A stretch of 64,000 nucleotides of DNA from an uncultured Methanosarcinales archaeon (GCA_964492935.1 CAZBLF010000002.1:1-64000); one strand, 5' to 3'. Shown: positions 42,229-58,611, numbered from the stretch's first letter. Made by a program: numbers and translations. The notes: a model not told the origin generated them from the sequence alone.

Positions 42229-42325
42229 GGGCCCGTAGCTCAGCCTGGTTAGACAGATGGAAAATCTGGACCAAAGCGATCGCCTCTTAAGCGATAGGCC
42301 GCGAGTTCGAATCCCGCCGGGCCCA
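42229..42325 (+). tRNA. tRNA-Lys(CTT) with a 22-nt intron in the D-arm
   Basis: After removing 42253-42274: GGGCCCG TA GCTC AGCCTGGTTA GAGC G ATCGC CT CTT AA GCGAT AGGCC GCGAG TTCGAAT CCCGC CGGGCCC A; TATA TTTATAAA upstream. Confidence 0.92.
42253..42274 (+). other. Non-canonical BHB tRNA intron (position about 22/23)
   Basis: GGTT/GACC 4-bp helix, AG^A and AA^A bulges, CAGAT/ATCTG inner stem. Confidence 0.88.
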
Positions 42326-43027
42326 TTTTATTTTTTCAAGATGTTTAGAATTACTTGAACCGATACGCTCCATCCACGTTTGTAGGTTCTTCCTCCCATT
42401 TACACAAAGGTAATTTGTTACATAGTCATTTCCCGTTACGCAATGAGTTTCCTTAATATCTAAATAGGTATTAGCCTTAATCCCTAGGACAGAGAGTGCT
42501 TTCTGACAATCAACAATGAGCTCTCTGCTACACATTTTGGCTTGGATAACAGGATATTTTTCAACTTTTTTGAAGTTGATAGAAAAGTCAGTATCAAACA
42601 ATCCTCTGAGGAAATGCCCGAGGTATTCTTGCTTATTCCAAAAAAGCGATGGAATCCTAATGGCGGATTTTCTATTCATAGGGAGGCCAATAATCTGTTT
42701 ATAGAACTGCACCATTCCCTTAGAACATATCTTCAATCTGAGTTCAGATTTGTTAGTTCCAACAAAGTAATGGGGAATGTCAAGGTTAAAGAGGTCCTTC
42801 TTTAATTTTTTTACATAATTCAATATGTAGTCTTTGTCCGTCTTCGCATCCCCAGAAACCATAATCTGGTATTCTTTTCGATCTGAGGAAAGGTACTCCC
42901 CAATATGTCCATCTCCAACCATAATTCCTATGTCTTCAGCAAGCGATTGAGACATCTCAGAGGGCAATCGAAGTCCTCGTTTGATATCTTGTTTACTTAA
43001 CTCAATTTCAGATGTGTTTAATCTCAT
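42287..43027 (-). CDS. Free-standing two-motif LAGLIDADG homing endonuclease
   Basis: LAEDIGIMVGDG and HFLRGLFDTDF motifs; last 13 codons are antisense to the tRNA-Lys 3' half. Confidence 0.85.
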   Translation of the reverse strand: MRLNTSEIELSKQDIKRGLRLPSEMSQSLAEDIGIMVGDGHIGEYLSSDRKEYQIMVSGDAKTDKDYILNYVKKLKKDLFNLDIPHYFVGTNKSELRLKICSKGMVQFYKQIIGLPMNRKSAIRIPSLFWNKQEYLGHFLRGLFDTDFSINFKKVEKYPVIQAKMCSRELIVDCQKALSVLGIKANTYLDIKETHCVTGNDYVTNYLCVNGRKNLQTWMERIGSSNSKHLEKIKWARRDSNSRPIA

Positions 43028-43171
43028 AATAATCACTCAAATTTTTGCATATATATGACTTTTGCAAAATAGAGTGCGTTGAGATTCGTGCAAATCTGAG
43101 TGAGTAACAAAATGGCAAACTTCGAAAGTCCTTATCCATACCTTTTTATATTCATTCTCCAATAGAATTTC

Positions 43172-43423
43172 ATGACAAACAAATACTGGTTCAAACCAAA
43201 AAGCTATGGTTATGGCGCAACCCCCACCACCTGGGAAGGCTGGGCATTCACAGCAGCCTTCATCGCAGTCGTTCTGTGGAGAGCACTAAAACTAGAAGAG
43301 CAAGCTCCAAGTCAATTTGCGCTAGAACTAGGACTTCTCATCCTCATCCTCATCGTAGTAACCAAACAAAAAACCGACGGAGAATGGAAATGGCGTTGGG
43401 AAAAAGGCAATAGAAACAGCTAA
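43172..43423 (+). CDS. Small membrane protein
   Basis: YWFKPKSYGYGATPTTWEGW plus two TM segments. Confidence 0.75.
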   Translation: MTNKYWFKPKSYGYGATPTTWEGWAFTAAFIAVVLWRALKLEEQAPSQFALELGLLILILIVVTKQKTDGEWKWRWEKGNRNS

Positions 43424-43454
43424 TTTTAAAAAAGAACTTCATTTCTAAAACATC

Positions 43455-45029
43455 ATGACAGAAGATTCCATGCACTGGGCAGATCAAACGGCTCGGCAAA
43501 TCATCAACCTGAAGGGAGAGAAAGACAACTACGTAATAGAATCAGGAATCACTCCCTCCGGAATGATCCACATCGGAAACTTTAGAGAAATTATCACAGC
43601 CGATCTCATTCAGCGCGGTTTCGAAGCAATAGAAAAGAAATGCACCTTCTTCTACATCTGGGACTCCTACGACGTCTTTAGAAAAGTTCCCGTAAACGTT
43701 CCTAATCAAGAAGAATTAAAGAAACATCTTCACAAACCGGTGTTTCGCGTTCCCGATCCCTACAACACACACAAAAATTACGCAGAGCACTTCGAAAAAG
43801 AGATGGAAGATCAGCTACCCCGAGTCGGCGTCAATCCCACCTTCGTCTATCAAGATCAAAAGTATCTCAACCTTGAATTTACCGAAGAAATCAAACAGGC
43901 ACTCGAAAACACCGAAGCCATCAAAGAAATCCTCAATGAATATCGAAAGGAACCGCTAGCAGAAAGCTGGCTCCCTATTTTCGTATTCTGTGAAAAGTGT
44001 CATAAAGATACCACTCATGACTTAGTCTATGAAGGAGACTACAACATCAGCTACGAATGTGCGTGCAATCACAAAGACACCGTTGACTTCAGCAAGAAAG
44101 GAATCGTAACCTTAAGATGGAGAGTTGACTGGCCCATGCGCTGGCACAAGAACAAGGTAGATTTCGAATCCGCAGGAAAAGATCACTTCGCAGCAGGCGG
44201 TTCTGTAGACACCGGAAGAAAAATCCAAGAGGCTGTCTGGAAAACTCAACCACCGCACGGCTGGGTCTATGAATGGATCAGCATTAAGGGAGGAAAACAA
44301 TTCTCCAGTTCTGCAGGCGAAGTCATAACATTAAAGGAGATGCTCGAAATCTACGAGCCACAAATCATCAGACACCTATTCGCCGGCACCCGCCCAAACA
44401 CCGAATTCGCAATCAGCTTCGACCTAGACGTCTTCAAAGTCTACGAAGATTATGACCAGTGCGAGCGTATCCACTACAAGAAAGAGGAAGTAGCAGAAAA
44501 AGACTTCCTAAAGCAAAAGAGAATCTATGAACTTTCACAAGTAGATTCCGTAGCAAAGGAAATGCCCTTCCAACCGTCCCTAAGACACATGATGAATGTC
44601 GTGCAACTCTATCAAGGAGACATGGAACAAATCAAAGGCTTCTACAAAGACGACATCAAAACCAAGGAAGACGATCAAAAGGTAGAAATCAGAGCTCAAT
44701 GCGCCCTAAACTGGCTAGCAAAGCACGCTCCAGAAGACTTCAAGTTCAAAGTAAATACCAAAGAAGAACTCAAAGCAATCGAATTCACCGATGAAGAGAA
44801 AACCATCATCAAAGCGCTAGCTACCTCCCTAGAAACCGCAAAGAAAGACGAGAAAGCACTCCATGACAGCTTCTATGTAGTAGCAGAGCAAGCAGAAGCA
44901 AAACCGCAAGACCTCTTCAAAGCAGTCTACAAAGCATTAATCAACAAAGAACGCGGACCACGCCTAGCAAACTTCATCTTAACGATAGGCATCAAAGAAG
45001 TAATCGAACTAGTAGAGAGTATTAATTGA
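43455..45029 (+). CDS. lysS: Lysine--tRNA ligase, class I
   Basis: HWAD, GITPSGMIHIGNFRE, WRVDWPMRW, GKDH, GPRL. Confidence 0.96.
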   Translation: MTEDSMHWADQTARQIINLKGEKDNYVIESGITPSGMIHIGNFREIITADLIQRGFEAIEKKCTFFYIWDSYDVFRKVPVNVPNQEELKKHLHKPVFRVPDPYNTHKNYAEHFEKEMEDQLPRVGVNPTFVYQDQKYLNLEFTEEIKQALENTEAIKEILNEYRKEPLAESWLPIFVFCEKCHKDTTHDLVYEGDYNISYECACNHKDTVDFSKKGIVTLRWRVDWPMRWHKNKVDFESAGKDHFAAGGSVDTGRKIQEAVWKTQPPHGWVYEWISIKGGKQFSSSAGEVITLKEMLEIYEPQIIRHLFAGTRPNTEFAISFDLDVFKVYEDYDQCERIHYKKEEVAEKDFLKQKRIYELSQVDSVAKEMPFQPSLRHMMNVVQLYQGDMEQIKGFYKDDIKTKEDDQKVEIRAQCALNWLAKHAPEDFKFKVNTKEELKAIEFTDEEKTIIKALATSLETAKKDEKALHDSFYVVAEQAEAKPQDLFKAVYKALINKERGPRLANFILTIGIKEVIELVESIN

Positions 45030-45085
45030 ATTCTGCATACCAAAAAAAGCGAAATCTTTATTAGATAGCAGAACTAGGTATCATT

Positions 45086-46189
45086 ATCGCAGCTCTCAAG
45101 AAACTAAAAAAAATTCTAACAAACACTAACAAAGTAATCGCATTAGCATTAAAAGCTGAGGGAGATATTTCAAAATTAAAAGCAAGACATGCAAGGAAAC
45201 TTCTTAACAAAATAATTGCCTTAGATATAGAGGAACTCCAGGAAATCCACAATGCCCTCAAAGAATTAAAATACGATGACAAAGAATTAGTAACAATTTT
45301 CCAGCAATTAACCCAAGAATGCCAAGAAATTGTAGCCATTGCCCAGGATTTATTTAAAGACTTATCTCAAACAAAAAAACTCGACGAAAAGCACAAAAGC
45401 CACATCCTTTCATTATTAGAAAGAATAAAATCTCTAGGAGAGAAACAAATATTGCAGGAAAAACAATTCCTCGAGATGAAGGGTGCCGACTTCGAAAAAG
45501 TCCTCGAAGAGTATGATATTTCTAAATTACCAAAGAAAAAGACGCTATGGCAAATAGGAGAAATTAGAGCTCTCTATAGAAGAAACCTCGCCCTCTCTGA
45601 TGAAGAAAAAGTCAGAGCGTTCAAACAACTGCTTGACGAGATGGGACCCGTAAGACTTGAGAAATATTACCGGAGAATTTTTCTCATCATGACAAAAGCG
45701 GAGAAGATACTAGTCAAACTTAAAAAAGCCAATCCCGGAAATGCCTTAATCAAGGAAAGCGAAAAACCCATGGAAGTTCCAGAAGTAGTAGACGGCCCAG
45801 AAGTTCCCAAGGAGATCATTGTCCCCTATCCAAAAGAAAAACTACCTTCCATGGACGATATTGGGTTTCTGATAACACATGGCACCCTATTTTCTATTTT
45901 TACTGCATCACTTACAGGTGGACTGTGGACGGGTGCTTTTTCGTTTATGTCAGCAATTCAATATATAGGGTGGGCCTCCGGACTAGTTCCTCTTGCCTTA
46001 GTCATCGCCATATCATTTTGGTTTGTGAAAAAAAAAGATGATGAGGTATCCAACACTCATAAAAAAGACATTAAATCTCATAGCATTTCTAACACAAGGC
46101 GGATCCCTCAAAATATACGATACAGAGGGTATAATCCCCGAACCTGGACCGATAAGAGTATAGAATTCGACCAAACTCAAGCAGGATAA
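45086..46189 (+). CDS. Hypothetical membrane protein; frame open well upstream of the predicted TTG (start uncertain)
   Basis: No stop in frame from 45065 to 46189; TATA TTTATTA at 45057; C-terminal TM pair. Confidence 0.55.
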   Translation: MAALKKLKKILTNTNKVIALALKAEGDISKLKARHARKLLNKIIALDIEELQEIHNALKELKYDDKELVTIFQQLTQECQEIVAIAQDLFKDLSQTKKLDEKHKSHILSLLERIKSLGEKQILQEKQFLEMKGADFEKVLEEYDISKLPKKKTLWQIGEIRALYRRNLALSDEEKVRAFKQLLDEMGPVRLEKYYRRIFLIMTKAEKILVKLKKANPGNALIKESEKPMEVPEVVDGPEVPKEIIVPYPKEKLPSMDDIGFLITHGTLFSIFTASLTGGLWTGAFSFMSAIQYIGWASGLVPLALVIAISFWFVKKKDDEVSNTHKKDIKSHSISNTRRIPQNIRYRGYNPRTWTDKSIEFDQTQAG

Positions 46190-46240
46190 AAAAGAGCATC
46201 AAAATCAAGAATACTAAAAAAAATAATTCTTTTCTAGCAT

Positions 46241-47530
46241 CTAACCCAACCCATAATCATCAAGAACTTCTCGCTCATTAATCTCTCCACGCAAATTAGT
46301 AACCATCAACCGCTTAATCTGTTCAGGATCTTTATAATTGCCAAGCAACCAAGACAATTTAATGAGTGCAGTCTCCGGAAGCATATCATTACAGTAAAGA
46401 CATCCTATCGATGACAACCTGCGCAAATTAACATACACAGACGGATGCACCCCACCAAAGAGACATTGCGAGGTTACCGCAACAAACCCTCCTTCTGCAA
46501 TATACTTTTTGAGCGTAGCATGATTCTTCAGATTCTCTTCGCCTAGATTGGTAGGCGCGTGTCCCAGGCCCGTCCCCTCAAGCACAAAACCTTTGTAATG
46601 ACCAGCAAAAAATTCGTACAACCGATTCTTCATGACGGGATGTACTTTCAACAATCCCGTATCTTTTTCGAAGCGATCCTTCACAATGAGTGTATCGTCT
46701 TCAGTTTTCCTACCATAGTCCTGCTTCAGATAGTTGATATCTTTTGTCTTATAATTGACCAACGCAAGGGGAGTATCATTAATCGCCTTAAACGCATCTC
46801 TCCGCGAGGTATGCATCTTTCTTGTTTTCGTTGCCGGAAGGATAGCACATTCATCATCGTTGACCGAATTATGCATACAAATGGCTACACCTGTAAAATC
46901 AGTTTTGGCAATAAATTCCGCAGCGCAAATCAAGTTCATAGTGGCATCCGTACTTGCCCTATCCGGAGACCGCTGCGCACCAACAATGATCACAGGAATA
47001 TTTATCTTCTCAAACACAAAAGCGAGAGCAGCCGCCGTATACGCAAGTGTATCAGTACCATGACCGATAATGACGCCCTGAACCTTTTGTTCCGCATACT
47101 TCCGAACTGCATCAGAAATTTTCTTGTAATCCTCAATCAACATATCCTCGGACATCATATTGGCGACAAGTTCAGTTTCAATGTTCGCAATATCTCGAAG
47201 CTCGGGAACCATTGCAAGCATATCCTCAACCGAGAATTTAGCAACAACTCCACCCGTCTCATAATCCACTTTACTTGCTATCGTACCACCCGTATGCAAT
47301 ATCGCAATGGTCGGCAATCCCTTTTTACTAACAACCTTCTCGAACGTTTCAGTATGTTCCTTTCGAGCACCAACCGTTTTCACAGAAGTAATCTTCTCTT
47401 TGGCAATCCCCATATTATATCCAGAATCAAGCTTCAAAACAACCGCATCCGTCTCCTCATTCGGCATCAACGTACCAGAAAAAGTCTTGTCCTTAGTAAC
47501 AACCTCAACCGTATCTCCAGGATTCGCCAT
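46241..47530 (-). CDS. gatD: Glu-tRNA(Gln) amidotransferase subunit D
   Basis: KLDSGYNMG, HTGGTIAS, HGTDT, GAQRS, KMHTSRRDAF, NLRGE. Confidence 0.95.
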   Translation of the reverse strand: MANPGDTVEVVTKDKTFSGTLMPNEETDAVVLKLDSGYNMGIAKEKITSVKTVGARKEHTETFEKVVSKKGLPTIAILHTGGTIASKVDYETGGVVAKFSVEDMLAMVPELRDIANIETELVANMMSEDMLIEDYKKISDAVRKYAEQKVQGVIIGHGTDTLAYTAAALAFVFEKINIPVIIVGAQRSPDRASTDATMNLICAAEFIAKTDFTGVAICMHNSVNDDECAILPATKTRKMHTSRRDAFKAINDTPLALVNYKTKDINYLKQDYGRKTEDDTLIVKDRFEKDTGLLKVHPVMKNRLYEFFAGHYKGFVLEGTGLGHAPTNLGEENLKNHATLKKYIAEGGFVAVTSQCLFGGVHPSVYVNLRRLSSIGCLYCNDMLPETALIKLSWLLGNYKDPEQIKRLMVTNLRGEINEREVLDDYGLG

Positions 47531-47567
47531 ACTCAAGATAGAACCAAGATGCAATATAAATCTTCCG

Positions 47568-47990
47568 CTACTTTACCCGAGCGCCATCAACAAGACTGGC
47601 AATCGGTTTCCGATCAAAAAACGTCTCATCGATCTCATGCCAAAAGCTAACCTGCTTCTCGCCCAACTGCCAACATAACAGAATATCACGTTTATTAAAC
47701 TTAGAAAAGAAATACACAATCCCCTCCTCGACCGAATGCACCACCGCACCCAATCGAAACAACTTCTCATGCTCATTAAAGAACTGAAACGAAAGCTGGT
47801 GAAACTTCTTATCATACTGCACATCATACGTCACCGCATCATAATAGTCATCATACACCACCTCAATTGAAGAAAGCGTATTCAAAGCATTATCCAACCG
47901 AATCATCTTCCGTAAAGAACGTTTAACCGTGCCAAGCATACGATTAGCCTGTTGTAAAGAAAGATACCGCTTAGGTATTTGAAGAACCAT
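47568..47990 (-). CDS. DUF2203-like protein
   Basis: ANRML...LLCWQLGEKQVSFWHEID...RKPI. Confidence 0.75.
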   Translation of the reverse strand: MVLQIPKRYLSLQQANRMLGTVKRSLRKMIRLDNALNTLSSIEVVYDDYYDAVTYDVQYDKKFHQLSFQFFNEHEKLFRLGAVVHSVEEGIVYFFSKFNKRDILLCWQLGEKQVSFWHEIDETFFDRKPIASLVDGARVK

Positions 47991-48019
47991 ACCGATTTAG
48001 AATCAAACAAACTATAAAA

Positions 48020-48323
48020 ACATTTGTTTTCCCCAGTCTATACAACCGGGAAAGGAAATGTGTTCAGTCACCACAAGTTACTGACACATTTGTTTTCCCC
48101 AGTCTATACAACCGGGAAAGGAAATGTGTTCAGTCACCACNNNNNNNNNNNNNNNNNNNNNNNNNNNNNNNNNNNNNNNNNNNNNNNNNNNNNNNNNNNN
48201 NNNNNNNNNNNNNNNNNNNNNNNNNNNNNNNNNNNNNNNNAAGTTACTGACACATTTGTTTTCCCCAGTCTATACAACCGGGAAAGGAAATGTGCTCAAT
48301 CGCCGAAGGTTATTGACATATTT
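48020..48323. repeat. 66-bp palindromic tandem repeat spanning a 100-N gap
   Basis: Unit AAGTTACTGACACATTTGTTTTCCCCAGTCTATACAACCGGGAAAGGAAATGTGTTCAGTCACCAC at 48075-48140; partial or diverged copies on both sides. Confidence 0.85.
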
Positions 48324-48336
48324 CTGTACTCAAACA

Positions 48337-49455
48337 TCAAAACAGATGCTTCACATACCGAGCCAGACGCGGCTCAGCAAAGAATAACTTCAACAAAAAC
48401 GAAGCAGGATATTCGCGGTCACTCTTCCGCATCACCTTCTGCACCCGCTTACTCCCCATATACGAAATCAGTCTATTATAATCTGCATCCGAGAAAGTAT
48501 CCAACATCTGACGGATCTTCAGGTGCGTGAACAAATTAAAGCCCGTCTCCTTTCGCCACGCTCGATCATAAGACGTGCCATCTTTCAAGGCCGACACCAA
48601 ACCTCGAGCCGCCTTCATCCCCGGAATAATGCCTCCACCGGTCGTAGCCTTCACGTGACCGCCAGCATCGCCAACCAAATAAATCCCGTTCTCGTAACAA
48701 GTAATCAAACCATCATACCTCGGAATTAAACCACCCAGATAACGAACCACCTCCTCCTTGTACGACTTCCCAAAGCGCATCTCCATAAACTTCTTGAAAT
48801 GAAAGGAAGCACGAGAACGAACAGCAAGCCCCACAACCGCAGTTGTCGAAGACGAAGGAACCACCCAAGCAAAGAACCCCTTACAAAAGTCATTGTTCAA
48901 ATACACCTCATACTGACCCTTATCAAAGCTACCCGAAATAACCGCCTGCGGCCCAATCCAGTGCTTCCGAGTAAGATCAGGATTCAACAACTTAGCGAGA
49001 GAAGAATTCGGACCATCAGCCCCCACTAAAGTATCAAAAGAATGCTCCTCCTCTTTCCCCTCATGCGAAATAACAAACTTTTTCTCCTTCACATCACAAG
49101 AAACCATCTTATGCGAGCGATGCAGCTTAGCGCCCTCTTTCACCGCAAGACCCACAAAGTATTCATCCAACTTAACCCTATCTACCACAATATCATTTGT
49201 CGGCAAAATACAAGACTTCCCATTCGGCCCAATCACCTTCACCGAAGTCAATTTATTAAGCAACACATCCGAAGGCAAATCCACCATCTTCAAAATTGAG
49301 GAAGTAATAATGCCGGTACAATGACACGGCTCCCCAATCACCTTGTGATCTTCATAAATAGAAACCGAATATCCAGCCTTCCCCAAGAGATAGCCAGAAT
49401 ACCCACCAATCGTGCCAGCACCGATGAGTGAAACTTTTTCATTTTTCTGAGCCAT
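48337..49455 (-). CDS. Geranylgeranyl reductase-family FAD oxidoreductase
   Basis: IGAGTIG, GADG, FFAWVVP, VGDAGGHVKATTGGGI. Confidence 0.88.
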   Translation of the reverse strand: MAQKNEKVSLIGAGTIGGYSGYLLGKAGYSVSIYEDHKVIGEPCHCTGIITSSILKMVDLPSDVLLNKLTSVKVIGPNGKSCILPTNDIVVDRVKLDEYFVGLAVKEGAKLHRSHKMVSCDVKEKKFVISHEGKEEEHSFDTLVGADGPNSSLAKLLNPDLTRKHWIGPQAVISGSFDKGQYEVYLNNDFCKGFFAWVVPSSSTTAVVGLAVRSRASFHFKKFMEMRFGKSYKEEVVRYLGGLIPRYDGLITCYENGIYLVGDAGGHVKATTGGGIIPGMKAARGLVSALKDGTSYDRAWRKETGFNLFTHLKIRQMLDTFSDADYNRLISYMGSKRVQKVMRKSDREYPASFLLKLFFAEPRLARYVKHLF

Positions 49456-49508
49456 GATGTAGCGGATACACTAATTCTATTTATATCTTAGTGCATAGCA
49501 ATCAAGAA

Positions 49509-51164
49509 CTATGCAGCAAGTGACATGATTTTCTCAGAAACGGCATACTGCTTACCCTCTGCAAATCGTTCAATTTGCTCCAAACAAAATTGAATCTCTA
49601 AAAGACGATCAACCTCTTCAGCGTGGAAGTAGGGAGTTTTGGAGTCAATTTTGCTCTCAAAGAATTCAACGAGAGTTGACCCATGCTGCTGCGAAAATTG
49701 AGTATCATTTTTCATGAGTTGAGCCACTTTATCTAATAGCTTCTGAGAACTTTTTACGATGATCAGATAGAGTCGCATGGCGTAGAGATTGGTTCCCTCC
49801 AATTCAATGTTCAATACTGATTTGTATCCATGAAAAAAGTTCGTGATGGTCTTCTCAACGAACGCATTATCAAGTTTCTCCTTAAATTGCCAGTTGCGAA
49901 TAGATGCAACGACCCTCCCCACATCGGCCAATGGATCTCCCGGTTTAGAGTCATCATAATCGACAATAATCACTGTTTCGGGGTGAGCGACAAAAAAGAA
50001 ATTATCCAGGTGTGCATCTCCATGGATAATCGAGAGATAGTGTGTCTTGTATCTGTCTCGAATACGCATGAATTCCTGGTACACCTGCTCAGATAACAAC
50101 CCCTCTCGCTCTAAGAGTTTAATATGATTTTTTAATCGCTCAAAATCCTTAGTATACCCTTTACTAAAGAGAAGGCGAGGACTATATGACGAGACTTTAT
50201 TCAGCGTCCTCTTATGTATCTGCGCAAGTGATTGACCGAGTGTGTAAAATGCAATATTGGTCTGTCGGGAGCGAGAAGTCAAAAGCTTTCTAATTGGCAA
50301 TCCTTTCACCTTCTCACAAACAATCTCATTATCACTGACCCGCACGAGTTTGGGAATGAGGCCACCGGCAGCCGCAATAAATTTACGAGCCCGACGAGAC
50401 TCATCAAATGCCCCTTCCTCCGTGAATGCCTTTGCTACGTATTCGCAATCGGAGCTCGTTTTTACAAGCAGCACAGGATTCTTAAATCCTCCGCCAAGTT
50501 TAATTCTCTTTTCGATAGAGAAGTCTACACGGTCACCATCAAATTCCTTCAACTCTCGTTCGAGTTCCTTTGCACAGACCTCATAGGTATTTTCCTGAAT
50601 AACCTCAAGATCGTAGGTTTTAAGAAGATCTGTTATCTGAAAAAGTAAGTCATTAAGATCCTCAGATTGGATTGAATACAAAATAGCACCTTCCCGCTTA
50701 ATCAAATATACTAGCTTATCCTTGGCGTTGTTCTGATTGATCATACCGCTATATTTTCGAAACCACTTCACCTGAAGGTAAATTGTCTTCTCAAGAATTC
50801 GAAGCTGTCGGAAAAGGGTGCGAAGATCCTTGATGATCTTTTCTTCCCGAACCTTCTTTTTTGAGTTTATCTCTTTGTCGCAAATTTCCATGAGCGCACG
50901 AATATTTTTTCCTATACCCACAATTTCCTTTTGAATCAGTTGATCTTCGGTAAGATTTACTCCCATGATCTCCCCGAACTCATCCCGCATTCGGATAAGC
51001 TCTTCTTCATCCCACTTCTCAGAAAAAGCCTGCACCAGTTGAAGTTTCCTTTTATACTCCTGAAGATAGGTCTTGATCGCAGATATATGTTTTTTCGCAG
51101 AGGTGTTTAAGAATGCTATCGATTCACGAGAAAGAACATTTCCAAACAAGCTATGAATGACCAC
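49509..51164 (-). CDS. Aminoglycoside-phosphotransferase/choline-kinase-fold protein with N-terminal helical extension
   Basis: LGGGFKN, VAK, IIHGDAHLDN, IVDYD, GDPLADVG. Confidence 0.75.
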   Translation of the reverse strand: MVIHSLFGNVLSRESIAFLNTSAKKHISAIKTYLQEYKRKLQLVQAFSEKWDEEELIRMRDEFGEIMGVNLTEDQLIQKEIVGIGKNIRALMEICDKEINSKKKVREEKIIKDLRTLFRQLRILEKTIYLQVKWFRKYSGMINQNNAKDKLVYLIKREGAILYSIQSEDLNDLLFQITDLLKTYDLEVIQENTYEVCAKELERELKEFDGDRVDFSIEKRIKLGGGFKNPVLLVKTSSDCEYVAKAFTEEGAFDESRRARKFIAAAGGLIPKLVRVSDNEIVCEKVKGLPIRKLLTSRSRQTNIAFYTLGQSLAQIHKRTLNKVSSYSPRLLFSKGYTKDFERLKNHIKLLEREGLLSEQVYQEFMRIRDRYKTHYLSIIHGDAHLDNFFFVAHPETVIIVDYDDSKPGDPLADVGRVVASIRNWQFKEKLDNAFVEKTITNFFHGYKSVLNIELEGTNLYAMRLYLIIVKSSQKLLDKVAQLMKNDTQFSQQHGSTLVEFFESKIDSKTPYFHAEEVDRLLEIQFCLEQIERFAEGKQYAVSEKIMSLAA

Positions 51165-51263
51165 GAATAGATTTTAGCAGAGGGAGTTAAAAGCTTTTCG
51201 GTGAATTGAATTAGTTAAAGGAAAACCCATATATTTATTAATGCTCCGCTACTACACAAGCTA

Positions 51264-52130
51264 ATGAAATTCATGCAAAAGCTCAAACAAAAAATGCATG
51301 ACAACAAGTTCCAGAGAGAAGCAAAAAACAGAAGAAACAAAGGTGATACCATGTCAGCATCTATCGATTTAAAAGGAAAAAAAGCAGTTGTCTTTGGAGT
51401 AGCAACCGACAAATCTATCGGATGGTCCATCGCAAAAGCGTTAAACGACGCAGGCTGCCAAATAGCATTAGGCTATCAAGAACGAGCAGAAGAATACGTA
51501 AAAGAACTAGCAAAAGAATTGAAAGACCCCTTCCTAGCACCCTGTGATATGGTTGCAGACGAATTCATAGAAAACTTCTTTGAAAAAGTAGAAAAAGAAT
51601 TCGGAAAGTTCGATTTCTTAATCCATTCAGTAGCCTTCGCAAAGAAAGACTACTTGCAAGGAAAATTCTACGAAGTGCCTCGTAGAGCCTACAACACTGC
51701 TCAAGAAGTCTCAGCCTATTCACTTACCGCCATCACCAGAGAATCCGTAAAGAGAAAACTGCTCAACAAAGACGGAGCAATCCTGAGCATGACCTATCTA
51801 GGAAGCGTAATGGCCGTACAAAATTACAACGTCATGGGTGTAGCAAAAGCAGCCCTTGAATCCATTACCCGCTATCTAGCAATGGATCTAGGCGAGAACG
51901 GAATCAGAGTGAATGCAATCTCCGCCGGCCCCATCGCAACGATGGCCGCATCTGGCATCACCGGATTCGAAGACATTCTAAAACACGCAGAAAAGAAAGC
52001 ACTCCTTAAAAGAAACATTAGCGCAGAAGACGTCGGCAATACCGCCCTCTTCCTCTGCAGCGACATGAGCAAGAACATCACCGGCCAAGTAATCTATGTA
52101 GATGCTGGATATAGCGTTAATGGATTATAA
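51264..52130 (+). CDS. fabI: Enoyl-ACP reductase FabI (alternative start 51351 with AGGTGA SD)
   Basis: SIGWSIAK, HSVAFA, SAYS, TYLGS, YNVMGVAKAALES, RVNAISAGP. Confidence 0.92.
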   Translation: MKFMQKLKQKMHDNKFQREAKNRRNKGDTMSASIDLKGKKAVVFGVATDKSIGWSIAKALNDAGCQIALGYQERAEEYVKELAKELKDPFLAPCDMVADEFIENFFEKVEKEFGKFDFLIHSVAFAKKDYLQGKFYEVPRRAYNTAQEVSAYSLTAITRESVKRKLLNKDGAILSMTYLGSVMAVQNYNVMGVAKAALESITRYLAMDLGENGIRVNAISAGPIATMAASGITGFEDILKHAEKKALLKRNISAEDVGNTALFLCSDMSKNITGQVIYVDAGYSVNGL

Positions 52131-52132
52131 TC

Positions 52133-52321
52133 ATGGAACCAGGACTTCAAGACAAGTTAATCACAATGCAGCCAGATGTAAAACTGACTTCACTGGCAGA
52201 CGCACTTAGCGAAGTAGCCGAACTGACAAAGTCAGGCAGTATTGATGAAGTCCTTGATGCCATGACTAAAATAGCGCCCATTCAGCCCCATCTCACGAGC
52301 GCATTGAATAAAAAGCCATGA
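52133..52321 (+). CDS. Hypothetical protein
   Basis: Short ORF abutting fabI. Confidence 0.4.
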   Translation: MEPGLQDKLITMQPDVKLTSLADALSEVAELTKSGSIDEVLDAMTKIAPIQPHLTSALNKKP

Positions 52322-52372
52322 TTAGCAGTATTAGGACAAGCCGGAAAGATTTTTAGAGCATATGGGACTCTC

Positions 52373-52732
52373 GTGAAAGCAGATAAAAAATACGCTGAAT
52401 CAACCAAAGGCTATAATGCACACATAGCACACCGCCAGAATTATCCTGAAATACCTCAAGCAGTGATGGATCAATTCATGCAGGCGATGTCAGCGAAGAG
52501 AAAGTATCATGACTTCATCGTAGCCATGATCGATGGACAAGAGATTATTTCTGGATCCTCTGGACCGGATTTCTGGGCGGCTAAGAAGAAGGTAGAGGGT
52601 TCAGTAGGGATTGTATCTCCTACCTCATTTATGGCATACCTCATAAGAGGGAAAGGAGACCCTCCAATCTACAATCGTCTTGATTCAGACGGCCAACCAG
52701 TAACTCCACCACCACACCCAACCAAAACCTAA
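52373..52732 (+). CDS. Hypothetical protein
   Basis: 119-aa ORF. Confidence 0.5.
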   Translation: MKADKKYAESTKGYNAHIAHRQNYPEIPQAVMDQFMQAMSAKRKYHDFIVAMIDGQEIISGSSGPDFWAAKKKVEGSVGIVSPTSFMAYLIRGKGDPPIYNRLDSDGQPVTPPPHPTKT

Positions 52733-52871
52733 GACATAACCATTCTCAAACAACAATATTTATAAAGCATTTCAGAGTCTATCTTATTTTTGAGATGACG
52801 TTACGATTTTCACCCAATCCCATTCTAAAGTTCGTTCTAAACATCTCTATTTCTGACGTAAGGAGGCTACA

Positions 52872-53948
52872 ATGTACGCAGTTCTAGCCCTCAAAGACGG
52901 AACTATTTTTGAAGGCAAAGGCTTCGGTGCTATTAAAGAAACCGCCGGCGAAGTAGTCTTCAACACCTCCCTCGTCGGCTATGAAGAGTCACTTACCGAC
53001 CCCTCTTACAAAGGCCAGCTCCTAACACTAACCTATCCGTTAGTAGGAAATTACGGCGTAAGAAAAGAACATTTCGAATCAGACAAAATCCAGGTGCAAG
53101 GATTTATCGTACGCGAGTTCCAGGAACACCACGCCCATAAAGACGCAACCAAAACCATTCACGAATTTCTAAAGGAACACAATATTCCAGGCATCTCAGA
53201 TATCGACACCCGTATGCTTACAATCAAAATCAGAGAGCACGGAGTCATCAATGGTTGCATAAAAACCAGCGACAAACCCATAGACACCGCAGCATTAGTA
53301 AAAAAAGCAAAAGAGCTAGATGACTACGGAGAAAAGAATCTCCTACCAGAAGTTTCTGTTCGCGCCCCCGAGTTCATCGATGCAAAAGGAGAAAAAACAA
53401 TCGCCATGATCGACACCGGAGTTAAACTTTCAATCATCAGAAATTTCACGAAAAGAAAAATTAACGTTTGGAGATTTCCCTACAACACTACAGCAAATGA
53501 AATAAGAGAAAAGAACGTACAAGGACTCTTCATCGCCAACGGCCCAGGCAATCCAGAACAAGCAACAGAAGCAATCGAGGCAGTAAAACAACTAAAGGAA
53601 GAACTCCCCATCACCGGAATCTGCCTAGGAAATCAGATAGTTGCTTTAGCATTAGGCGGAAAAACCTACAAATTAAAGTTCGGCCACCGTGGAACAAATC
53701 AACCGGTAAAGAATATCAAAGAAAACAAAGTCTACATAACGAGCCAGAACCACGGATTCGCCGTAGACAAAGAATCACTACGCAACACAGACTTAGAAGT
53801 CTCTTATATCAATCTCAACGATGGCAGCGTAGAAGGAATGCAACATAAATCTCTACCCATCCAAACCGTCCAGATGCACCCCGAAGCGAATCCCGGACCG
53901 CAGGATACAAACGGATTTTTTGATGACATAGTGAGGAATCTAAAATGA
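52872..53948 (+). CDS. carA: Carbamoyl-phosphate synthase small subunit
   Basis: GEVVFNT, LTDPSY, NGPGNP, GICLG, FGHRG, SQNHG, HPEA. Confidence 0.97.
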   Translation: MYAVLALKDGTIFEGKGFGAIKETAGEVVFNTSLVGYEESLTDPSYKGQLLTLTYPLVGNYGVRKEHFESDKIQVQGFIVREFQEHHAHKDATKTIHEFLKEHNIPGISDIDTRMLTIKIREHGVINGCIKTSDKPIDTAALVKKAKELDDYGEKNLLPEVSVRAPEFIDAKGEKTIAMIDTGVKLSIIRNFTKRKINVWRFPYNTTANEIREKNVQGLFIANGPGNPEQATEAIEAVKQLKEELPITGICLGNQIVALALGGKTYKLKFGHRGTNQPVKNIKENKVYITSQNHGFAVDKESLRNTDLEVSYINLNDGSVEGMQHKSLPIQTVQMHPEANPGPQDTNGFFDDIVRNLK

Positions 53949-55230
53949 CCCAAGCGATGCCCAATAACAACACTCTTCATCAAGCTAACAACAGTTTTAA
54001 GAACTTCAATATTCCAATAATAGGCAATCTTATGAATAATGAACTTAAACCAAATGAATCTGAGATGAAAGAAATACATTTTTGGGAGCTTCCAGACACA
54101 GTCAGATTGAGATTAAATCTTGAATCTTTACATCATCTATTCAAATCCTCTGATCCAGTGAGTACAGCGGAGAGGTTGGGGATATCGAAATCATATCTAA
54201 ACCATTTGAAGAATGGCAGGCACGCAATAAAGCCCTCTCAACTACTAATCCTTACGAGGCTTTTTGAGAAAGACCCCTTAGAAGTAGAGAAGCAAATAAT
54301 TTCGATGAACTCAACTCGAGGAGGGCAAGCAAGATGCACGTTACCAATCGGGCAAATGAAGAAATTGCCTCGCTGATAGGCCATTACTATGGAGATGGAA
54401 GCATCATTACAAAAAAGCCCCAGTTCAAATTTTGCAATTTTGATAAGGTCTCTCTAAACGAAGTGAAATTGTTAGTAGCAAAGCAATTCGAGTCAACACC
54501 CATTAATGTAACTGAGACTACAGTTACTTATTCCACAATTATCGGAGAGATACTCCTTCTATTTGGTGCACAGCGAGGAAGTAAACTTAAGCTAAAAAAT
54601 GATGTCCCTACCTGGATCACAAACGGAAGCGATGGTGTGAAAAGCAGGTTTGTGAGAGCGTTGTTTGACGACGACGGATCAGTTTCTTCTTCCGGGAACA
54701 ATAAGAACATTAATTTCCACCAAATAGTCTTCGATGAGTACAATCAGTACTCTATAAGATTCTTAAAATCCGTGGTCAAGATACTAGAAGGATTTGAGAT
54801 AATTACTCATGGACCTTACTTATCCAGAAAATACCAGATTAGCCAAAAGGAAAGGAATGTAAATTTCTTAATTATCTCGGACTGGAAGAGTCTGGAAAAT
54901 TATAAGAGGAAAGTAGATTTTTTTCACTCAAAGAAAAAGAAAAGAATAATTGATGTATTATCAAGAAAAAAGACACTGGGAAAACACGAAAGAAATCTCT
55001 TATACAAAAAGATTATCCACTTGTTCCATCCTGAAGAAGAACCATTATCAACGGCATTCATTTCCGAAAAATTGGACATCTCCACAAGAGCAGCCCTCAA
55101 AAGGTTGAAGAATCTTCAAAGCAACAAAAAAGTGACCTTCGAAGGAAGAGTCCGAAACCGATCATTTTTATGGAAACTAAATGGAGGTGAAACCAAATAC
55201 CCAAAAGACAAGATATCAAAAAAATCTTAG
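53945..55230 (+). pseudogene. Frameshifted HTH plus LAGLIDADG homing endonuclease (ORFs 53945-54376 and 54334-55230)
   Basis: HTH (AERLGISKSYLNHLKNG); frame change near 54350 joins TLPI to ANEEIASLIGHYYGDG; second motif RFVRALFDDDG; C-terminal wHTH. Confidence 0.75.
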
Positions 55231-58200
55231 TGATTGGTTCAGGCCCAATTCAAATCGGACAAGCCGCTGAATATCCTTAATAGGAATCAGAGTCGACTAC
55301 TCCGGTACGCAAGCCTGCAAAGCACTAAGGGAGGAAGGCTATAAAGTTGTTTTAGTAAATAGCAATCCAGCCACAATCATGACCGATGCCGACATGGCAG
55401 ACGCAGTCTACATAGAACCCCTAACCGTAGAGATCGTAGAAAAAATAATCATAAAGGAAAAGCCAGATGGCATTCTGCCAACGATGGGCGGCCAAACCGG
55501 ATTAAATCTAGCAGTACAGCTACACCAACAAGGAATTCTCAAAAAACACCACGTAGAACCACTCGGAACATCAATAGAATCCATCGAGCAAGGAGAAGAC
55601 AGAGAACTGTTCAAAAAACTCTGCATAGATATTGGAGAACCTATTCCCGAATCAAAAACCGTAGAAAATCTCAAACAAGCAAAAGCATTCGAGAAAGAAT
55701 GCGGACTCCCGATAGTCATCCGTCCAGCCTACACCCTCGGAGGCACTGGAGGAGGAATAGCACATACACCAGAAGAATTCGAAACCATTACCCAACACGG
55801 AATCAATCTCAGCCCCATCAAGCAAGTCTTATTAGAAAAAGCAATCCTTGGCACCGAGGGCTGGGGAGAATTCGAGTTTGAAGTGATGCGCGATAAGAAC
55901 GACAACTGCATCATCATCTGTCCCATGGAAAACCTCGACGCCATGGGCATCCACACCGGCGAGTCCATTGTAACGGCTCCAACGCAAACCCTCAACGATA
56001 AAGAATTCCAAACTCTAAGAACATCCGCAATCAAAGTAATCAGAGCACTAAAAGTAGAGGGCGGCTGCAACATCCAGTTCTCATTCAACTACCATACTGG
56101 AGAATACGTCATCATCGAAGTCAATCCGCGTGTCTCACGATCATCAGCCCTAGCATCTAAAGCAACCGGCTACCCCATAGCAAGAATCGCTACAAAAATT
56201 GCAATAGGAATGACACTAGATGAAATTCCTAACGATGTAACCAAAGAAACCAAAGCATGCTTCGAGCCCACAATCGACTACACCGTAGTCAAAATTCCGA
56301 GATGGCCCTTCGACAAATTCCCTACCGTAGACAAGCGCATCGGCACCCAGATGAAATCCACCGGAGAGACCATGGCGATCGGCAGAACGTTCGAAGAAGC
56401 CCTCCAAAAAGCAATCAGATCGCTAGAAGTAGACAGATTCGGATTAGGCCACGACCCCAAAGACCGCATCTGCGAAAACAAAGAGGAAATCATTCAAAAT
56501 CTCAAAGTTCCAACACATAAAAGACTCATGTATATCCGAGATGCGTTTGCACTCGGCATGAACGAAGAAGAAGTAAAAGCACTCACCGGCATCAACACCT
56601 GGTTCCTCACCAAAATAAAAAACATCTACGAGCACGCCAACACCATCACCAAAGAAAAAGAATCAATAAGAGAAGCAAAAAGAAAAGGATTTTCCGACGT
56701 CCAAATAGCAAAAATCACAAACACAAGTGAAAAAGAAATCAGAACGTTAAGAAAAGAACACAACATCCTCCCTACCTACAAAATGGTAGACACGTGTGCC
56801 GCAGAGTTCGAAGCAAAAACGCCCTATCTCTATGGAACCTACGAGCAAGAAGATGAATCCAAACCCACCAACAAAAAGAAAGTAATCATCATTGGTGGAG
56901 GCCCCATCCGAATCGGCCAAGGAATAGAATTCGATTATTGTTGTGTCCACAGCGTCTTTGCCTTACAAGAAGAAGGCTACGAAGCCATCATTGTAAACAA
57001 TAACCCAGAAACCGTTTCAACCGACTTCGATACCTCTGATAAACTCTACTTCGAACCCTTAATTTTCGAAGACGTCATGAATATCATCGAACGAGAGCAA
57101 CCGCATGGAGTAATCCTACAATTCGGTGGACAAACGCCCATTAACATGGCGATGCGCCTACAAGAAGAGGGAGTCAAAATACTGGGAACACAACCCGGGA
57201 GCATCGACACCGCAGAAAATAGAGATAAGTTCGGCGCAATCCTAGAAACATTAAAGATTCCCAGTGCCCCCTGGGGAACCGCGAGATCAATAAATGAAGC
57301 CTTACTCAAAGCAGGCAACATCGGCTATCCCGTACTCGTAAGACCTTCCTACGTTCTCGGAGGTAGAGCAATGCAAATCGTAACGAGCGATGAAGAATTA
57401 AAGGCATATATGGAGGAAGCCGTAAAGATTTCCCCCGACCATCCCGTTCTCGTAGACAAGTACCTAGCAAACGCACTAGAACTTGATGTAGATGCATTGT
57501 GCGATGGCAAGCAAGTCTATGTCGCAGCCATCATGGAGCACATCGAGGAAGCCGGCGTACACTCCGGAGATTCAGCCTGCGTCATCCCTCCACAAAGCCT
57601 TAAACCAGAAGTCAAACAAAAAGTCATCGACTACACCAAGAAACTAGCTCTAGCTCTCAAGACAATTGGATTAATCAATATCCAATATGCAGTAAAGGAT
57701 GACGTCGTCTATATTCTAGAAGCAAATCCTCGTTCATCAAGAACCATCCCCTATGTCAGCAAATCCATAGGAAAGCCCATGGCAAAAATTGCAACCCAGG
57801 TACTTCTTGGAAAAACCCTAGACGAACTAAATCTAGGAGACTATACCGAACCCACCTTCACCACCGTCAAGCAAGTCGTCTTTCCCTTTCTTAAATTACA
57901 GGGAGTTGATCCCATACTAGGACCAGAAATGAAATCCACCGGAGAGGTCATGGGAATAGATACCTCCTTCGGCAAAGCCCTCTTCAAAGGCTTCGAAGCA
58001 GCCCAGATGAAACTGCCGAAGCAAGGCAACATCATGGTTGCAATCGGAAGAGATGACCACAAAGAACAAGCCGTGGACTGGGCAAAAAGCCTAATCGAGA
58101 TGGGCTTCAAGCTCTTTTGCACACCCGGAACGCGAGACGTCTTCATCAAGCACAACATCCCTTCAACCACCGTACCCAAAATCAGAGAGGACCCCATGAT

Positions 58201-58420
58201 ACTTGACATGATGAAGCGCAACCAAATTCATATGGTGATCAACCTCCATCGCGGCTCCCATCCAAGAACCGACAGCTACACCATAAGACGAAAGTGCATA
58301 GAATTAAACATCCCTCTACTAACACGAATGCCCACCGCAAAAGCCGCAATAAAAGCAATCACTTCGATGAAAGACCAAGAGTATGATGTAAAGTCGCTGC
58401 AAGCCTTTTACGCAGACTGA
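55197..58420 (+). CDS. carB: Carbamoyl-phosphate synthase large subunit, join(55197..55272,55293..58420), about 1067 aa, ATA start
   Basis: Exon 1 (M)[24 protein letters not shown] after GGAGGTGA; exon 2 [16 protein letters not shown] runs into ORF 55379-58420. Confidence 0.93.
55273..55292 (+). other. Candidate 20-nt BHB/BHL-type mRNA intron in carB
   Basis: ATCCTTAATAGGAATCAGAG; CTGA/TCAG central helix, AT^A and AG^T bulges; removal gives GAA TTC GAC (E-F-D). Confidence 0.8.
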
Positions 58421-58611
58421 CACACACCACAATTTCTCAAACAAAAGACTAACACATAAAAACAAACCCTAATTAACTCACCACTTCGTGACGAAAAAAC
58501 CTATACAACTACTTGAAAAGCCGAAAAATATTGACGGAAAGCATTTAAGGGAGTAACACACTCCGTATTTTCCCAGTCATTCTGAAATCCATACTCAAGC
58601 GGTGATTTCAA

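Follow-up and report, generated by a model that had tools for sequence, protein, structure and literature searches.

Why do two introns of only 20–22 nt, one in a tRNA gene and one in a protein gene, each lie beside a free-standing LAGLIDADG endonuclease gene? Both pairs are found in a window of 64,000 nt (the whole stretch of DNA that was analysed) from the genome of an uncultured Methanosarcinales archaeon (GCA_964492935.1, in the following G000), which was compared with G001, a genome of the same genus. The host is a tiny marine archaeon of a DPANN/Woesearchaeota-like lineage. The features concerned are the following.

42229–42325, plus strand: tRNA-Lys(CTT) gene with the exons 42229–42252 and 42275–42325, called by ARAGORN after removal of the insert
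42253–42274, plus strand: 22-nt mini-intron in the D-arm with a relaxed BHB, delimited by fold and alignment to an intron-less orthologue
42287–43036, minus strand: free-standing single-chain LAGLIDADG endonuclease gene (PF14528; ATG at 43027, GTG at 43036)
52872–53948, plus strand: carA, whose stop codon shares an ATGA overlap with the start of the endonuclease ORF
53945–54376, plus strand: N-terminal piece (HTH_3) of the carB-associated endonuclease, frame broken near 54330
54334–55230, plus strand: second piece of the carB-associated endonuclease with LAGLIDADG core and C-terminal HTH_11 (frame open from 54268, ATG at 54334)
55183–55272, plus strand: GGAGGTGA (55183–55190) and carB exon 1, which starts with ATA at 55197
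55273–55292, plus strand: 20-nt mini-intron in the carB mRNA with a near-canonical BHB, delimited by orthologue alignment and fold
55293–58420, plus strand: carB exon 2
58606–59679, plus strand: another free-standing LAGLIDADG gene, the third in the window, overlapping with the beginning of an Lhr-type helicase gene

The initial annotation had taken both inserts for BHB introns, and this is borne out. Without 42253–42274 the tRNA-Lys gene yields a normal 75-nt cloverleaf, called Lys(ctt) by ARAGORN, that aligns without gaps to the intron-less orthologue of G001; with the insert in place Rfam reports a partial match only (24.4 bits) and the ARAGORN call is wrong. The T-stem has one A·C mismatch as read from the sequence. 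Removal of 55273–55292 from carB gives GAA T|TC GAC and thus E-F-D, the reading of 10/10 uninterrupted close orthologues. Both inserts are predicted to form a 3-nt bulge, a 4-bp helix and a 3-nt bulge, with cuts that restore the gene. In tRNA-Lys the central helix is 42247–42250/42269–42272 with the bulges 42251–42253 and 42273–42275, the inner helix is CAGAU/AUCUG and the outer helix is weak (relaxed form). In carB the helix is 55267–55270/55287–55290 with the bulges 55271–55273 and 55291–55293, and the inner helix is UCCU/AGGA with one extra A. A BHB at the exact site, with 4/4 pairs in the central helix and at least 4 in the inner one, arises by chance at 0.3% of 20,000 random sites. In addition, homologous introns show compensatory change. 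The genome G005 has a 22-nt D-arm intron at the same tRNA-Lys site, in which two pairs of the inner helix have changed in a compensatory manner (CUUAU/AUAAG), and in carB the BHB of the genome G011 is kept with AAGC/GCUU as inner helix. Six further carB introns keep a GGCG/CGCC-type central helix, as judged by eye. A single gene for the splicing endonuclease EndA is present in G000 (219-aa ORF, PF01974 match with 99.8 bits).

No ATG, GTG or TTG is read in frame ahead of the ATA start of carB. We also considered whether a large BHB could remove the entire endonuclease gene from the carA–carB transcript and restore an ATG. This was rejected, as judged by eye the required pairing of AAAA (53942–53945) with CAAA (55194–55197) does not form.

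It had further been claimed that each intron lies within about 45 nt of the stop codon of a LAGLIDADG gene and that the 3′ ends of these genes overlap the intron-bearing genes; both statements hold. The gene 42287–43036 converges on the tRNA gene, its last 13 codons fall into the 3′ half of the tRNA, and 12 nt separate the intron from its stop codon (42287–42289), which is part of the anticodon loop. The stop codon of the carB-associated gene (55228–55230) lies in exon 1, 42 nt from the intron. Both encoded proteins exceed the curated cut-off of LAGLIDADG_3 (PF14528, 22.5 bits), with 35.4 bits for the tRNA-Lys enzyme and 26.2 bits for the core of the carB enzyme. GDG and DTD/DDD motifs are found in both and in 17/17 aligned copies (16 free-standing ones and one from an rRNA intron); in the tRNA-Lys enzyme these are residues 40–42 and 147–149, and G40, D41, G42, D147, T148 and D149 are invariant in the alignment. 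A sequence search of this enzyme against the PDB gave no match at E ≤ 1. Its AlphaFold model (pLDDT 89.6) points to a duplicated alpha-beta-beta-alpha-beta-beta-alpha fold, and Foldseek matched the model to I-DmoI (E = 1e-9, TM 0.78 on the target) and also to I-Tsp061I and PI-PfuI. Judged by their sequences, both are bona fide double-motif LAGLIDADG proteins with putative cleavage and homing activity. The carB-associated gene is frameshifted in G000, and the frame break near 54330 is also present in a contig of an independent sequencing run; the intact homologue of G011 has 366 aa.

The bI3 maturase is also among the fold matches, LAGLIDADG maturases are known for group I introns, and the endonuclease genes lie in cis to the introns. 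The proteins might hence be domesticated, maturase-like cofactors that help EndA with an unusual adjacent intron. We regard this as highly improbable. Introns are still present when the gene has a frameshift (carB of the window), is absent (carB of G368) or is not adjacent (tRNA-Lys of G005), all aligned copies retain the catalytic acidic residues, and patchy presence and absence is typical of selfish elements.

The most telling evidence for a link between endonuclease gene and intron comes from carB. Among 401 genomes of the order, the clade of the carB-type endonuclease (E ≤ 1e-39) is found in only six (G000, G011, G297, G370, G330 and G360), which belong to five families. In all six the gene lies between carA and carB, and carB carries a mini-intron of 17–23 nt at the identical E|FDYSG site; congeners have neither gene nor intron. 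The co-occurrence that had been predicted for carB is thus strict and the distribution patchy. The enzymes of the clade share 31–35% identity with that of G011 (58% between G000 and G011), and the introns of different genomes are unrelated in sequence except for the bases that pair with the exons. Two further genomes have an intron at the same site: in G368 no endonuclease gene is present, and in G040 the intron lies behind an ORF in which 'homing endonuclease associated repeats' occur four times (PF18780, E = 1e-30), together with a weak restriction-fold ORF. This suggests that in G040 a second nuclease family has converged on the same carB site. The introns of G040 and G368 are clearly homologous to each other.

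These data bear on two other explanations. The endonuclease could target the gene edge or another nearby site and donor introns could simply be dragged along in co-conversion tracts, with no immunity involved. We consider this unlikely, as the same site is interrupted in six out of six genomes despite divergent enzymes and unrelated introns, and is interrupted behind a different type of nuclease in G040. Moreover, frequent loss would be expected of a mere passenger 78 nt away. The congener G013, which has no cassette, is 96% identical to G011 in the middle of exon 1, the part that separates endonuclease gene and intron; this stretch looks native, and one long foreign tract is not what links the two. 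The lack of an obviously foreign tract that bears both also counts, like the lone intron of G368, against the cassette reading given below. Alternatively, the introns could have been made locally, the endonuclease cutting its own host gene and captured filler DNA surviving only when it folds into a BHB. The tiny size of the introns and their lack of sequence similarity beyond the exon-pairing bases speak for such an origin, as does the clustering of intron gains at endonuclease-adjacent tRNA genes (see below). Nevertheless, we give it a low probability, since the homologous introns of G040 and G368 in carB and of G000 and G005 in tRNA-Lys indicate that inheritance or transfer accounts for at least some of the introns, and since repeated chance hits on the exact phase at E|F are unlikely.

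At tRNA-Lys the predicted co-occurrence was confirmed in part only. G001 lacks both the intron and any LAGLIDADG match. On the other hand, the homologous intron of G005 has no endonuclease ORF in the 108 nt up to the contig end, and the orthologous enzymes at tRNA-Lys(CTT) in the loci L126 and L127 of two other genomes are accompanied by introns at the canonical position and in the T-loop, not in the D-arm. A single recognition site of ∼22 bp could not span these positions. The coupling at tRNA-Lys is loose; introns at differing positions beside orthologous enzymes are what dragged-in donor introns would also produce. No orthologue with more than 44% identity to the tRNA-Lys enzyme was found among 40 relatives, nor in a contig search (5 loci).

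Genome-wide, PF14528 has 18 matches in G000 and none in G001, and 9/16 free-standing LAGLIDADG ORFs of G000 abut a tRNA gene (binomial P ∼7e-13 for at least 9/16 within 200 nt). By blastn against G001 the endonuclease genes are clean insertions at syntenic tRNA loci, with spans of 879 versus 55 nt at Gln, 808 versus 5 nt at Met and 1372 versus 10 nt at Ile/Asn; this presence and absence at syntenic loci suggests that the genes are mobile. The orthologues of tRNA-Lys, Gln, Ala, Ser, Met and others in G001 are without the introns of G000, and five non-canonical tRNA inserts have alignment-defined boundaries that coincide with an exact BHB. In other genomes, a tRNA gene lies within ∼220 nt of members of the tRNA-type endonuclease family at 11/14 evaluable loci, many with non-canonical introns. 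In the 23S rRNA gene of G000, insertions amounting to ∼1.4 kb contain LAGLIDADG ORFs.

The expectation that genes beside LAGLIDADG ORFs carry BHB inserts was partly upheld. Introns specific to G000 are present in 7/10 tRNAs at most 400 nt from an endonuclease gene versus 3/14 others (Fisher P = 0.035), a result that hinges on the distance cut-off (P = 0.20 at 200 nt). However, about half of the free-standing endonuclease genes of G000 have no visible intron in the neighboring gene. An endonuclease gene abuts the intron-less tRNA-Leu(TAG), and no intron was seen in the neighbors of the six copies beside protein genes (four junctions were read, and in-frame introns could escape such reading); in the window, none is visible in the Lhr-type helicase gene. 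These copies would fit introns that are merely dragged along. The exons of endonuclease-adjacent tRNAs differ from G001 by a mean of 5.1 mismatches versus 1.3 in the others (one-sided MWU P = 0.015), as expected for co-conversion from foreign donors; this speaks for the cassette reading given below as well as for dragged-in introns. tRNA-Asn has a D-loop intron in G001, despite the lack of any LAGLIDADG match there, and none in G000 despite an endonuclease gene 14 nt away. The tRNAs Gly(TCC), Arg(TCT) and His of G000 have gained introns in surroundings where no endonuclease gene could be recognised; searches for remnants beside them gave a tRNA-derived tail as best tblastn match (E = 0.01) and no Pfam match in the three neighboring ORFs, with runs of N in the Arg flank.

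Such cases raise the question whether tRNA genes and conserved gene starts are just landing pads in an intron-rich genome, with endonuclease genes and introns accumulating independently and the two pairings of the window being coincidental. In fact, about two thirds of the tRNA genes of G000 bear introns anyway, other insertions are found next to tRNA-His, tRNA-Gly and tRNA-Arg, and the contingency table at 200 nt is not significant. Still, coincidence has in our view only a very slight chance of being the right explanation, given the six out of six carB loci across five families and the endonuclease-free congener that lacks introns at the same loci. The pairing of endonuclease gene and mini-intron is more than chance, and the relatives suggest that both spread together.

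Contigs from four DNA runs contain the same carrier alleles with no differences, rare variants being invisible in contigs, and no joint with adequate flank skips an intron or an endonuclease gene. The joint 42253>42318 was dismissed as empty allele, because it has one side of only 21 and probably stems from another tRNA. A look for RNA runs that contain 46501–56500 found none. Likewise, ARAGORN calls of tRNAs with 1-kb introns were discarded (one on C4 is without Rfam support, one on C18 lies inside the rRNA operon).

Taken together, the data are best explained by an archaeal form of collaborative homing with protein-spliced introns, a reading that we hold to be rather probable. The two pairs would be mobile cassettes, in which a free-standing LAGLIDADG homing endonuclease gene has inserted at the border of a highly conserved gene (3′ flank of tRNA-Lys, carA/carB junction) and is accompanied by a BHB mini-intron of 20–22 nt some tens of bases farther into the conserved gene. 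For cleavage site, immunity, splicing and direction of transfer we infer the following course. The enzyme would cut cassette-free alleles where the intron inserts or close by, and repair of the break by recombination with a carrier would copy the endonuclease gene, the short intervening stretch and the intron. The intron would split the recognition sequence so that the carrier's own DNA stays uncut, and at the RNA level EndA and ligase of the host would excise the intron so that the gene remains functional. After fixation the endonuclease gene may decay or be lost while the harmless intron remains; the carB copy of G000, already frameshifted, could be at this stage. As a more speculative extension, archaeal BHB introns may quite generally be brought to non-canonical tRNA positions and into protein genes by free-standing homing endonucleases, each mini-intron starting as the self-protection mark of a cassette and outlasting the endonuclease gene. 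On this view, numerous 'orphan' introns of archaea would be relics of earlier homing events.

Such a cassette offers a concrete, bench-testable route by which archaeal tRNA-type introns could reach new positions, and G000/G001 and G011/G013 are natural pairs of carrier and empty alleles. If true, collaborative homing would extend from the self-splicing introns of phages to protein-spliced introns of cells. A literature search, with subscription journals and supplements outside its range, found no paper on free-standing LAGLIDADG genes paired with BHB mini-introns nor on the carB intron. A 2026 preprint on Asgard tRNA introns tests several routes; it leaves open how introns arrive and contains neither 'homing' nor 'LAGLIDADG'.

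How does this compare with known systems? A BHB intron has been described in the cbf5 pre-mRNA of Crenarchaeota (PMC2738675). The carB intron would add a second, mobile example of an archaeal mRNA intron and differs from the cbf5 intron, as portrayed there, in its gene, its DPANN/Woesearchaeota-like lineage, its homing endonuclease partner and its patchy distribution (PMC2738675). With I-DmoI and I-Tsp061I from archaeal rRNA BHB introns the tRNA-Lys enzyme appears to share the single-chain double-motif fold as well as the association with a BHB intron. In those cases, however, the ORF lies inside the intron, whereas here it lies outside a mini-intron far too small for an ORF; this location and the lack of a Hint domain led us to reject an intron-encoded endonuclease or an intein. 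T4 SegB, a GIY-YIG enzyme, is a free-standing phage endonuclease that carries out intronless homing at tRNA genes. The tRNA-Lys enzyme resembles it in that its gene lies in or next to a tRNA gene that it is proposed to target, and differs from it by family and by the presence of an intron. The closest parallel is collaborative (trans) homing in phages, exemplified by cyanophage S-PM2, in which free-standing F-CphI neighbors an intron-containing psbA, and by mobE/I-TevIII in T4 (PMC3984707; PMC6083498; PMC2790892). As in the phage systems described there, a free-standing endonuclease gene adjoins a conserved gene with an ORF-less intron, at carB both are inherited jointly (6/6), and the intron insertion site is the proposed target of the enzyme. 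Unlike in phages, the host genes are cellular archaeal tRNA and mRNA genes, the enzyme is of the LAGLIDADG type, target and immunity are proposed from sequence, and the intron is not a self-splicing group I ribozyme; it is a BHB intron predicted to be removed by host proteins. Since 20–22 nt are too few for a ribozyme and a BHB is present, the cassettes are not members of the described kind, but would work like collaborative homing.

There is a link between the endonuclease genes and the mini-introns, and it is clearest at carB. In the window, the carB region has the following features:

53945–54376, forward strand: ORF with an HTH_3 domain, the N-terminal piece of the endonuclease
ending at 55230, forward strand: ORF with LAGLIDADG_3 and HTH_11 domains, the continuation past a frame break near 54330
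55273–55292, forward strand: carB mini-intron of 20 nt, which breaks the carB frame
58606–59679: third LAGLIDADG gene, after carB and overlapping the start of a helicase gene

The carA gene ends at 53948 and its stop codon overlaps the ATG of the next ORF. The initial annotation had placed an intron at 55273–55292 beside a LAGLIDADG gene ending at 55230, and this is borne out: removal of these nucleotides yields GAA TTC GAC with the junction after the first T, that is EFD, which is encoded by 10 of 10 uninterrupted close carB orthologues, and the splice cuts predicted by the bulge–helix–bulge (BHB) rule are exactly the frame-restoring boundaries. The BHB consists of the helix CUGA/UCAG, bulges AUA and AGU, an outer helix of 2 bp and an inner helix UCCU/AGGA with one extra A, and the fold is almost of textbook form. 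Contigs from four independent metagenomes carry alleles identical to those of the source genome G000, frame break included, and the organism is present in marine and vent samples. No interruption was seen in the helicase gene overlapped by the third LAGLIDADG gene.

Of 12 close carB orthologues, only two are interrupted, those of G000 and of G011 (a different genus), and the site is the same in both; these two genomes alone have an endonuclease gene between carA and carB; the congeners G001, G013 and G005 (the latter two unpublished) have neither. The endonuclease gene of G011 is intact (366 aa) and its carB intron of 23 nt has an inner helix unlike that of G000. When a 401-genome sample of the order was searched with the G011 enzyme, matches at E ≤ 1e-39, which define the carB-type clade, were found only in G000, G011, G297, G370, G330 and G360, spanning the families f1, f60, f68, f38 and f24; weaker matches sit at other loci. 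In 6/6 carriers the gene lies between carA and carB, and all six (6/6) have an insert of 17–23 nt in carB at the same position, between E and F of E-F(D-Y/F-S-G), with a central helix of the GGCG/CGCC type as read by eye. The proposed co-occurrence at carB thus holds for all six clade members in five families, but G368 has the intron without the endonuclease gene. With the intron-less N-terminus of G001 as query, carB was found in 101 of the 401 genomes. Among the matches listed (150 of 209) five start at residue 23–24 (G000, G011, G368, G040 and G370) and that of G297 reads through a TGA; the N-termini of G330 and G360 lie outside the matches listed, and at least eight carB genes are interrupted. 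A Fisher test that takes the other 93 as uninterrupted gives only a rough value.

In G040, a 29-nt intron at the same carB site is found downstream of two ORFs (locus L028, 1–1326), one with four PF18780 "homing endonuclease associated repeats" (E = 1e-30) and a small one with a weak restriction-fold match, possibly another kind of homing endonuclease for this target. G368 has a 29-nt carB intron homologous to that of G040; its carB starts with a normal ATG and is preceded by Nudix-like genes, and no endonuclease gene was found there, an N gap being close by. In the main rival explanation, the intron would be carried along as a passenger and protect nothing. What favours a protective role is the strict coupling of endonuclease gene and intron at one site in carB, which persists over very divergent enzymes, unrelated intron sequences and a second nuclease type. 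The middle of carB exon 1 of G011 is 96% identical to that of the cassette-free congener G013, and the 19 nt adjoining the intron are identical in G000 and G011, suggesting that only the intron-pairing bases travel with the intron or are held by it.

Upstream of carB exon 1 in G000 there is a strong GGAGGTGA and then, 6 nt on, ATA at 55197 (region 55183–55199); the exon begins with this ATA, an in-frame ATG, GTG or TTG being absent. The carB gene of G011 (locus L015) starts with ATC after the same GGAGGTGA, so that both carriers of family f1 are without a usual start codon; the start is ATG in cassette-free relatives and ATG or GTG in the more distant carriers. G370 has a second mini-intron of ∼30 nt in exon 1, between GSGA and LKIG and upstream of the shared intron (L107, ∼2750–2860; read by eye). 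In G297, the endonuclease ORF (L106, 1228–2526) continues in frame into carB exon 1, and the 21-nt intron is likewise in frame and provides the TGA stop. A distant member of the carB-type family in G099 (L116, 689–2625) lies immediately 3′ of an apparent gene of the host splicing endonuclease EndA, and its C-terminal residues are similar to EndA of G000, whose gene is in the C25 11548–11808 region.

The second pair in the window is found at tRNA-Lys(CTT):

42229–42325, forward strand: tRNA-Lys(CTT), from ARAGORN after insert removal and from alignment to G001
42253–42274, forward strand: D-arm mini-intron of 22 nt, between the D-loop and the 3′ strand of the D-stem
42287–43036, minus strand: double-motif LAGLIDADG ORF, with a Pfam match above the cut-off

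Unaided ARAGORN does not call this tRNA and Rfam gives only a partial match (24.4 bits). After systematic deletion of every possible segment ARAGORN recovered tRNA-Lys(ctt), and the top BHB score among the rescuing deletions belonged to exactly 42253–42274. The orthologue in G001 is uninterrupted (75 nt) and aligns with a single clean 22-nt gap. The BHB has two bulges of 3 nt (AGA and AAA), a 4-bp central helix GGUU/GACC and an inner hairpin of 5 bp; because the outer helix is weak, the motif is of the relaxed form. Deletion scan, alignment and fold together confirm the 22-nt insert that had been proposed beside the LAGLIDADG stop at 42287. ORF and tRNA are convergent: the final 13 codons fall within the 3′ half of the tRNA, and the stop, in the anticodon loop, is 12 nt away from the intron. 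Both motifs of the protein, GDG and DTD, are conserved without exception in its family, and the confident structural model (pLDDT 89.6) resembles I-DmoI, I-Tsp061I and intein endonuclease domains in structure comparison. The T-stem has one A·C mismatch and the exons differ from G001 at 7 positions; part of 42229–42325 doubles as C-terminal codons of the endonuclease.

The tRNA-Lys gene of G005 is interrupted at this D-arm site by an intron that is also 22 nt long and differs by two compensatory pair changes, and it has the canonical intron as well; stops but no endonuclease similarity are found in the 108 nt that separate the gene from the end of its contig. The tRNA-Lys enzyme shares only 38–44% identity with its nearest homologues. 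Those at L126 (a Woesearchaeota MAG) and L127, the latter sharing the upstream gene with the window, also converge on tRNA-Lys(CTT), whose introns there occupy the canonical and T-loop positions, not the D-arm. For the expected co-occurrence, the picture at tRNA-Lys is mixed: G001 lacks both elements and the L126 and L127 enzymes adjoin the same tRNA, but the introns are elsewhere. A tRNA lies within ∼220 nt of the enzyme gene at 11 of 14 evaluable tRNA-type loci in other genomes and at 390–850 nt at the other three. Many of these 11 tRNAs have non-canonical introns: in the D-loop of Gly(TCC) in G007, the D-stem of Gln(TTG) in G014, the T-arm of Phe and Met in G003 and G028 and at position 26/27 of Arg(TCT) in G030.

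An HMM built from the copies matched 19 ORFs in G000. Exclusion of two intein-sized ORFs and of C18 7490–8191, within the 23S rRNA gene, leaves 16 free-standing copies, nine of which adjoin a tRNA gene (chance expectation ∼0.26 of 16, P ∼7e-13). Of the remaining seven, one is at carB and six are beside other protein genes (Lhr-type helicase, metS, Obg/YchF-like GTPase, rpe-like gene and two more). Four of these junctions were read, and there no intron is visible in the neighbouring protein gene, whose frame is continuous through conserved motifs. Endonuclease genes with no intron beside them, together with the shifts of intron position at tRNA-Lys, argue that intron protection is not the sole solution.

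Table. tRNA genes of G000: distance to an endonuclease gene and introns specific to G000 relative to G001
Lys CTT: overlap; 22 nt, D-arm
Gln TTG: overlap; 23 nt, D-loop
Ala GGC: overlap; 19–20 nt, D-loop
Leu CAA: overlap
Ser GGA: 2 nt; introns of 30 nt (anticodon stem) and 13 nt
Leu TAG: 6 nt
Asn GTT: 14 nt, with Ile GAT on the other side at 321 nt
Tyr GTA: 39 nt
Met CAT: 173 nt; introns of 24 nt (anticodon stem) and 14 nt
Ile GAT: two extra introns
Ser CGA: intron of 31 nt
Gly TCC: introns of 48 nt (D-loop) and 20 nt
Arg TCT: intron of 20 nt
His: intron of 15 nt

The tRNA-Ala(GGC) gene (C6 3989–4080) is overlooked by both ARAGORN and Rfam; its intron has a perfect BHB (CCCG/CGGG; bulges GUA and AGA), and the upstream endonuclease ORF ends at tRNA positions 8–10. 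The 23S rRNA gene (C18 6970–11387, equal to L124 1471–5888) has 4418 nt versus 2987 nt in the model and contains two LAGLIDADG-type ORFs (C18 7490–8191 and 8818–9309), so that this genome has classical rRNA introns with endonuclease ORFs alongside its free-standing copies.

G001, whose carB protein is 94% identical, has no PF14528 match at a completeness of 80%, versus 18 in G000. The two genomes were compared over 24 tRNA pairs, leaving out Lys TTT (intron common to both), Arg TCG (poor alignment), the second His copy and those with no partner among 30 G001 loci (Leu CAA, Arg CCT, Thr CGT, Pro TGG and the C19 12380 gene). Of the 10 tRNAs at ≤400 nt from an endonuclease gene, 7 gained introns in G000, compared with 3 of the remaining 14 (Fisher P = 0.035); if the limit is set at 200 nt, the counts are 5/3 versus 5/11 (P = 0.20), and this cut-off-dependent statistic is only suggestive of a link to the endonuclease genes. 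For Lys, Gln, Ala, Met-1 and Gly-1, the alignment boundaries are those of a perfect 4-bp central helix with an inner helix of at least 4 bp, a combination found at 0.3% of random sites. By blastn, the endonuclease genes are clean insertions at syntenic loci. The endonuclease-adjacent tRNAs have 7, 5, 4, 2, 8, 0, 0, 5 and 15 exon mismatches to G001, whereas the 14 others average 1.3 (one-sided MWU P = 0.015), and this raised divergence would be the trace expected of co-conversion from foreign donors.

Against the link, Leu TAG is without intron despite its endonuclease gene and is the most diverged tRNA (15 mismatches), and tRNA-Asn(GTT) of the endonuclease-free G001 (L089, C56, beside tRNA-Ile) has a 21-nt D-loop intron that is absent from G000. 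Moreover, no recognisable endonuclease gene adjoins the intron-gaining Gly, Arg and His tRNAs, N runs being present in the Arg flank. This flank (C46 4247–4679) also contains repeated copies of the tRNA 3′ end joined to other DNA, a sign of faulty assembly or of a scar left by integration. G000-specific DNA by tRNA-His and tRNA-Gly(TCC) contains ORFs of 146 and 180 aa (C1 95575–96015 and 48091–48633) without Pfam match. Several contigs of G001 (C36 1–127, C22, C47) break off 50–220 nt from a tRNA gene, C36 exactly where G000 carries the endonuclease gene, and there may be population heterogeneity at these ends.

No published description of this pairing was found in the literature searched. The simplest mechanism would be collaborative homing as it is known from phages. 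However, the phage systems employ a group I ribozyme intron, whereas here the partner of the endonuclease would be a BHB intron, to be removed by the host.
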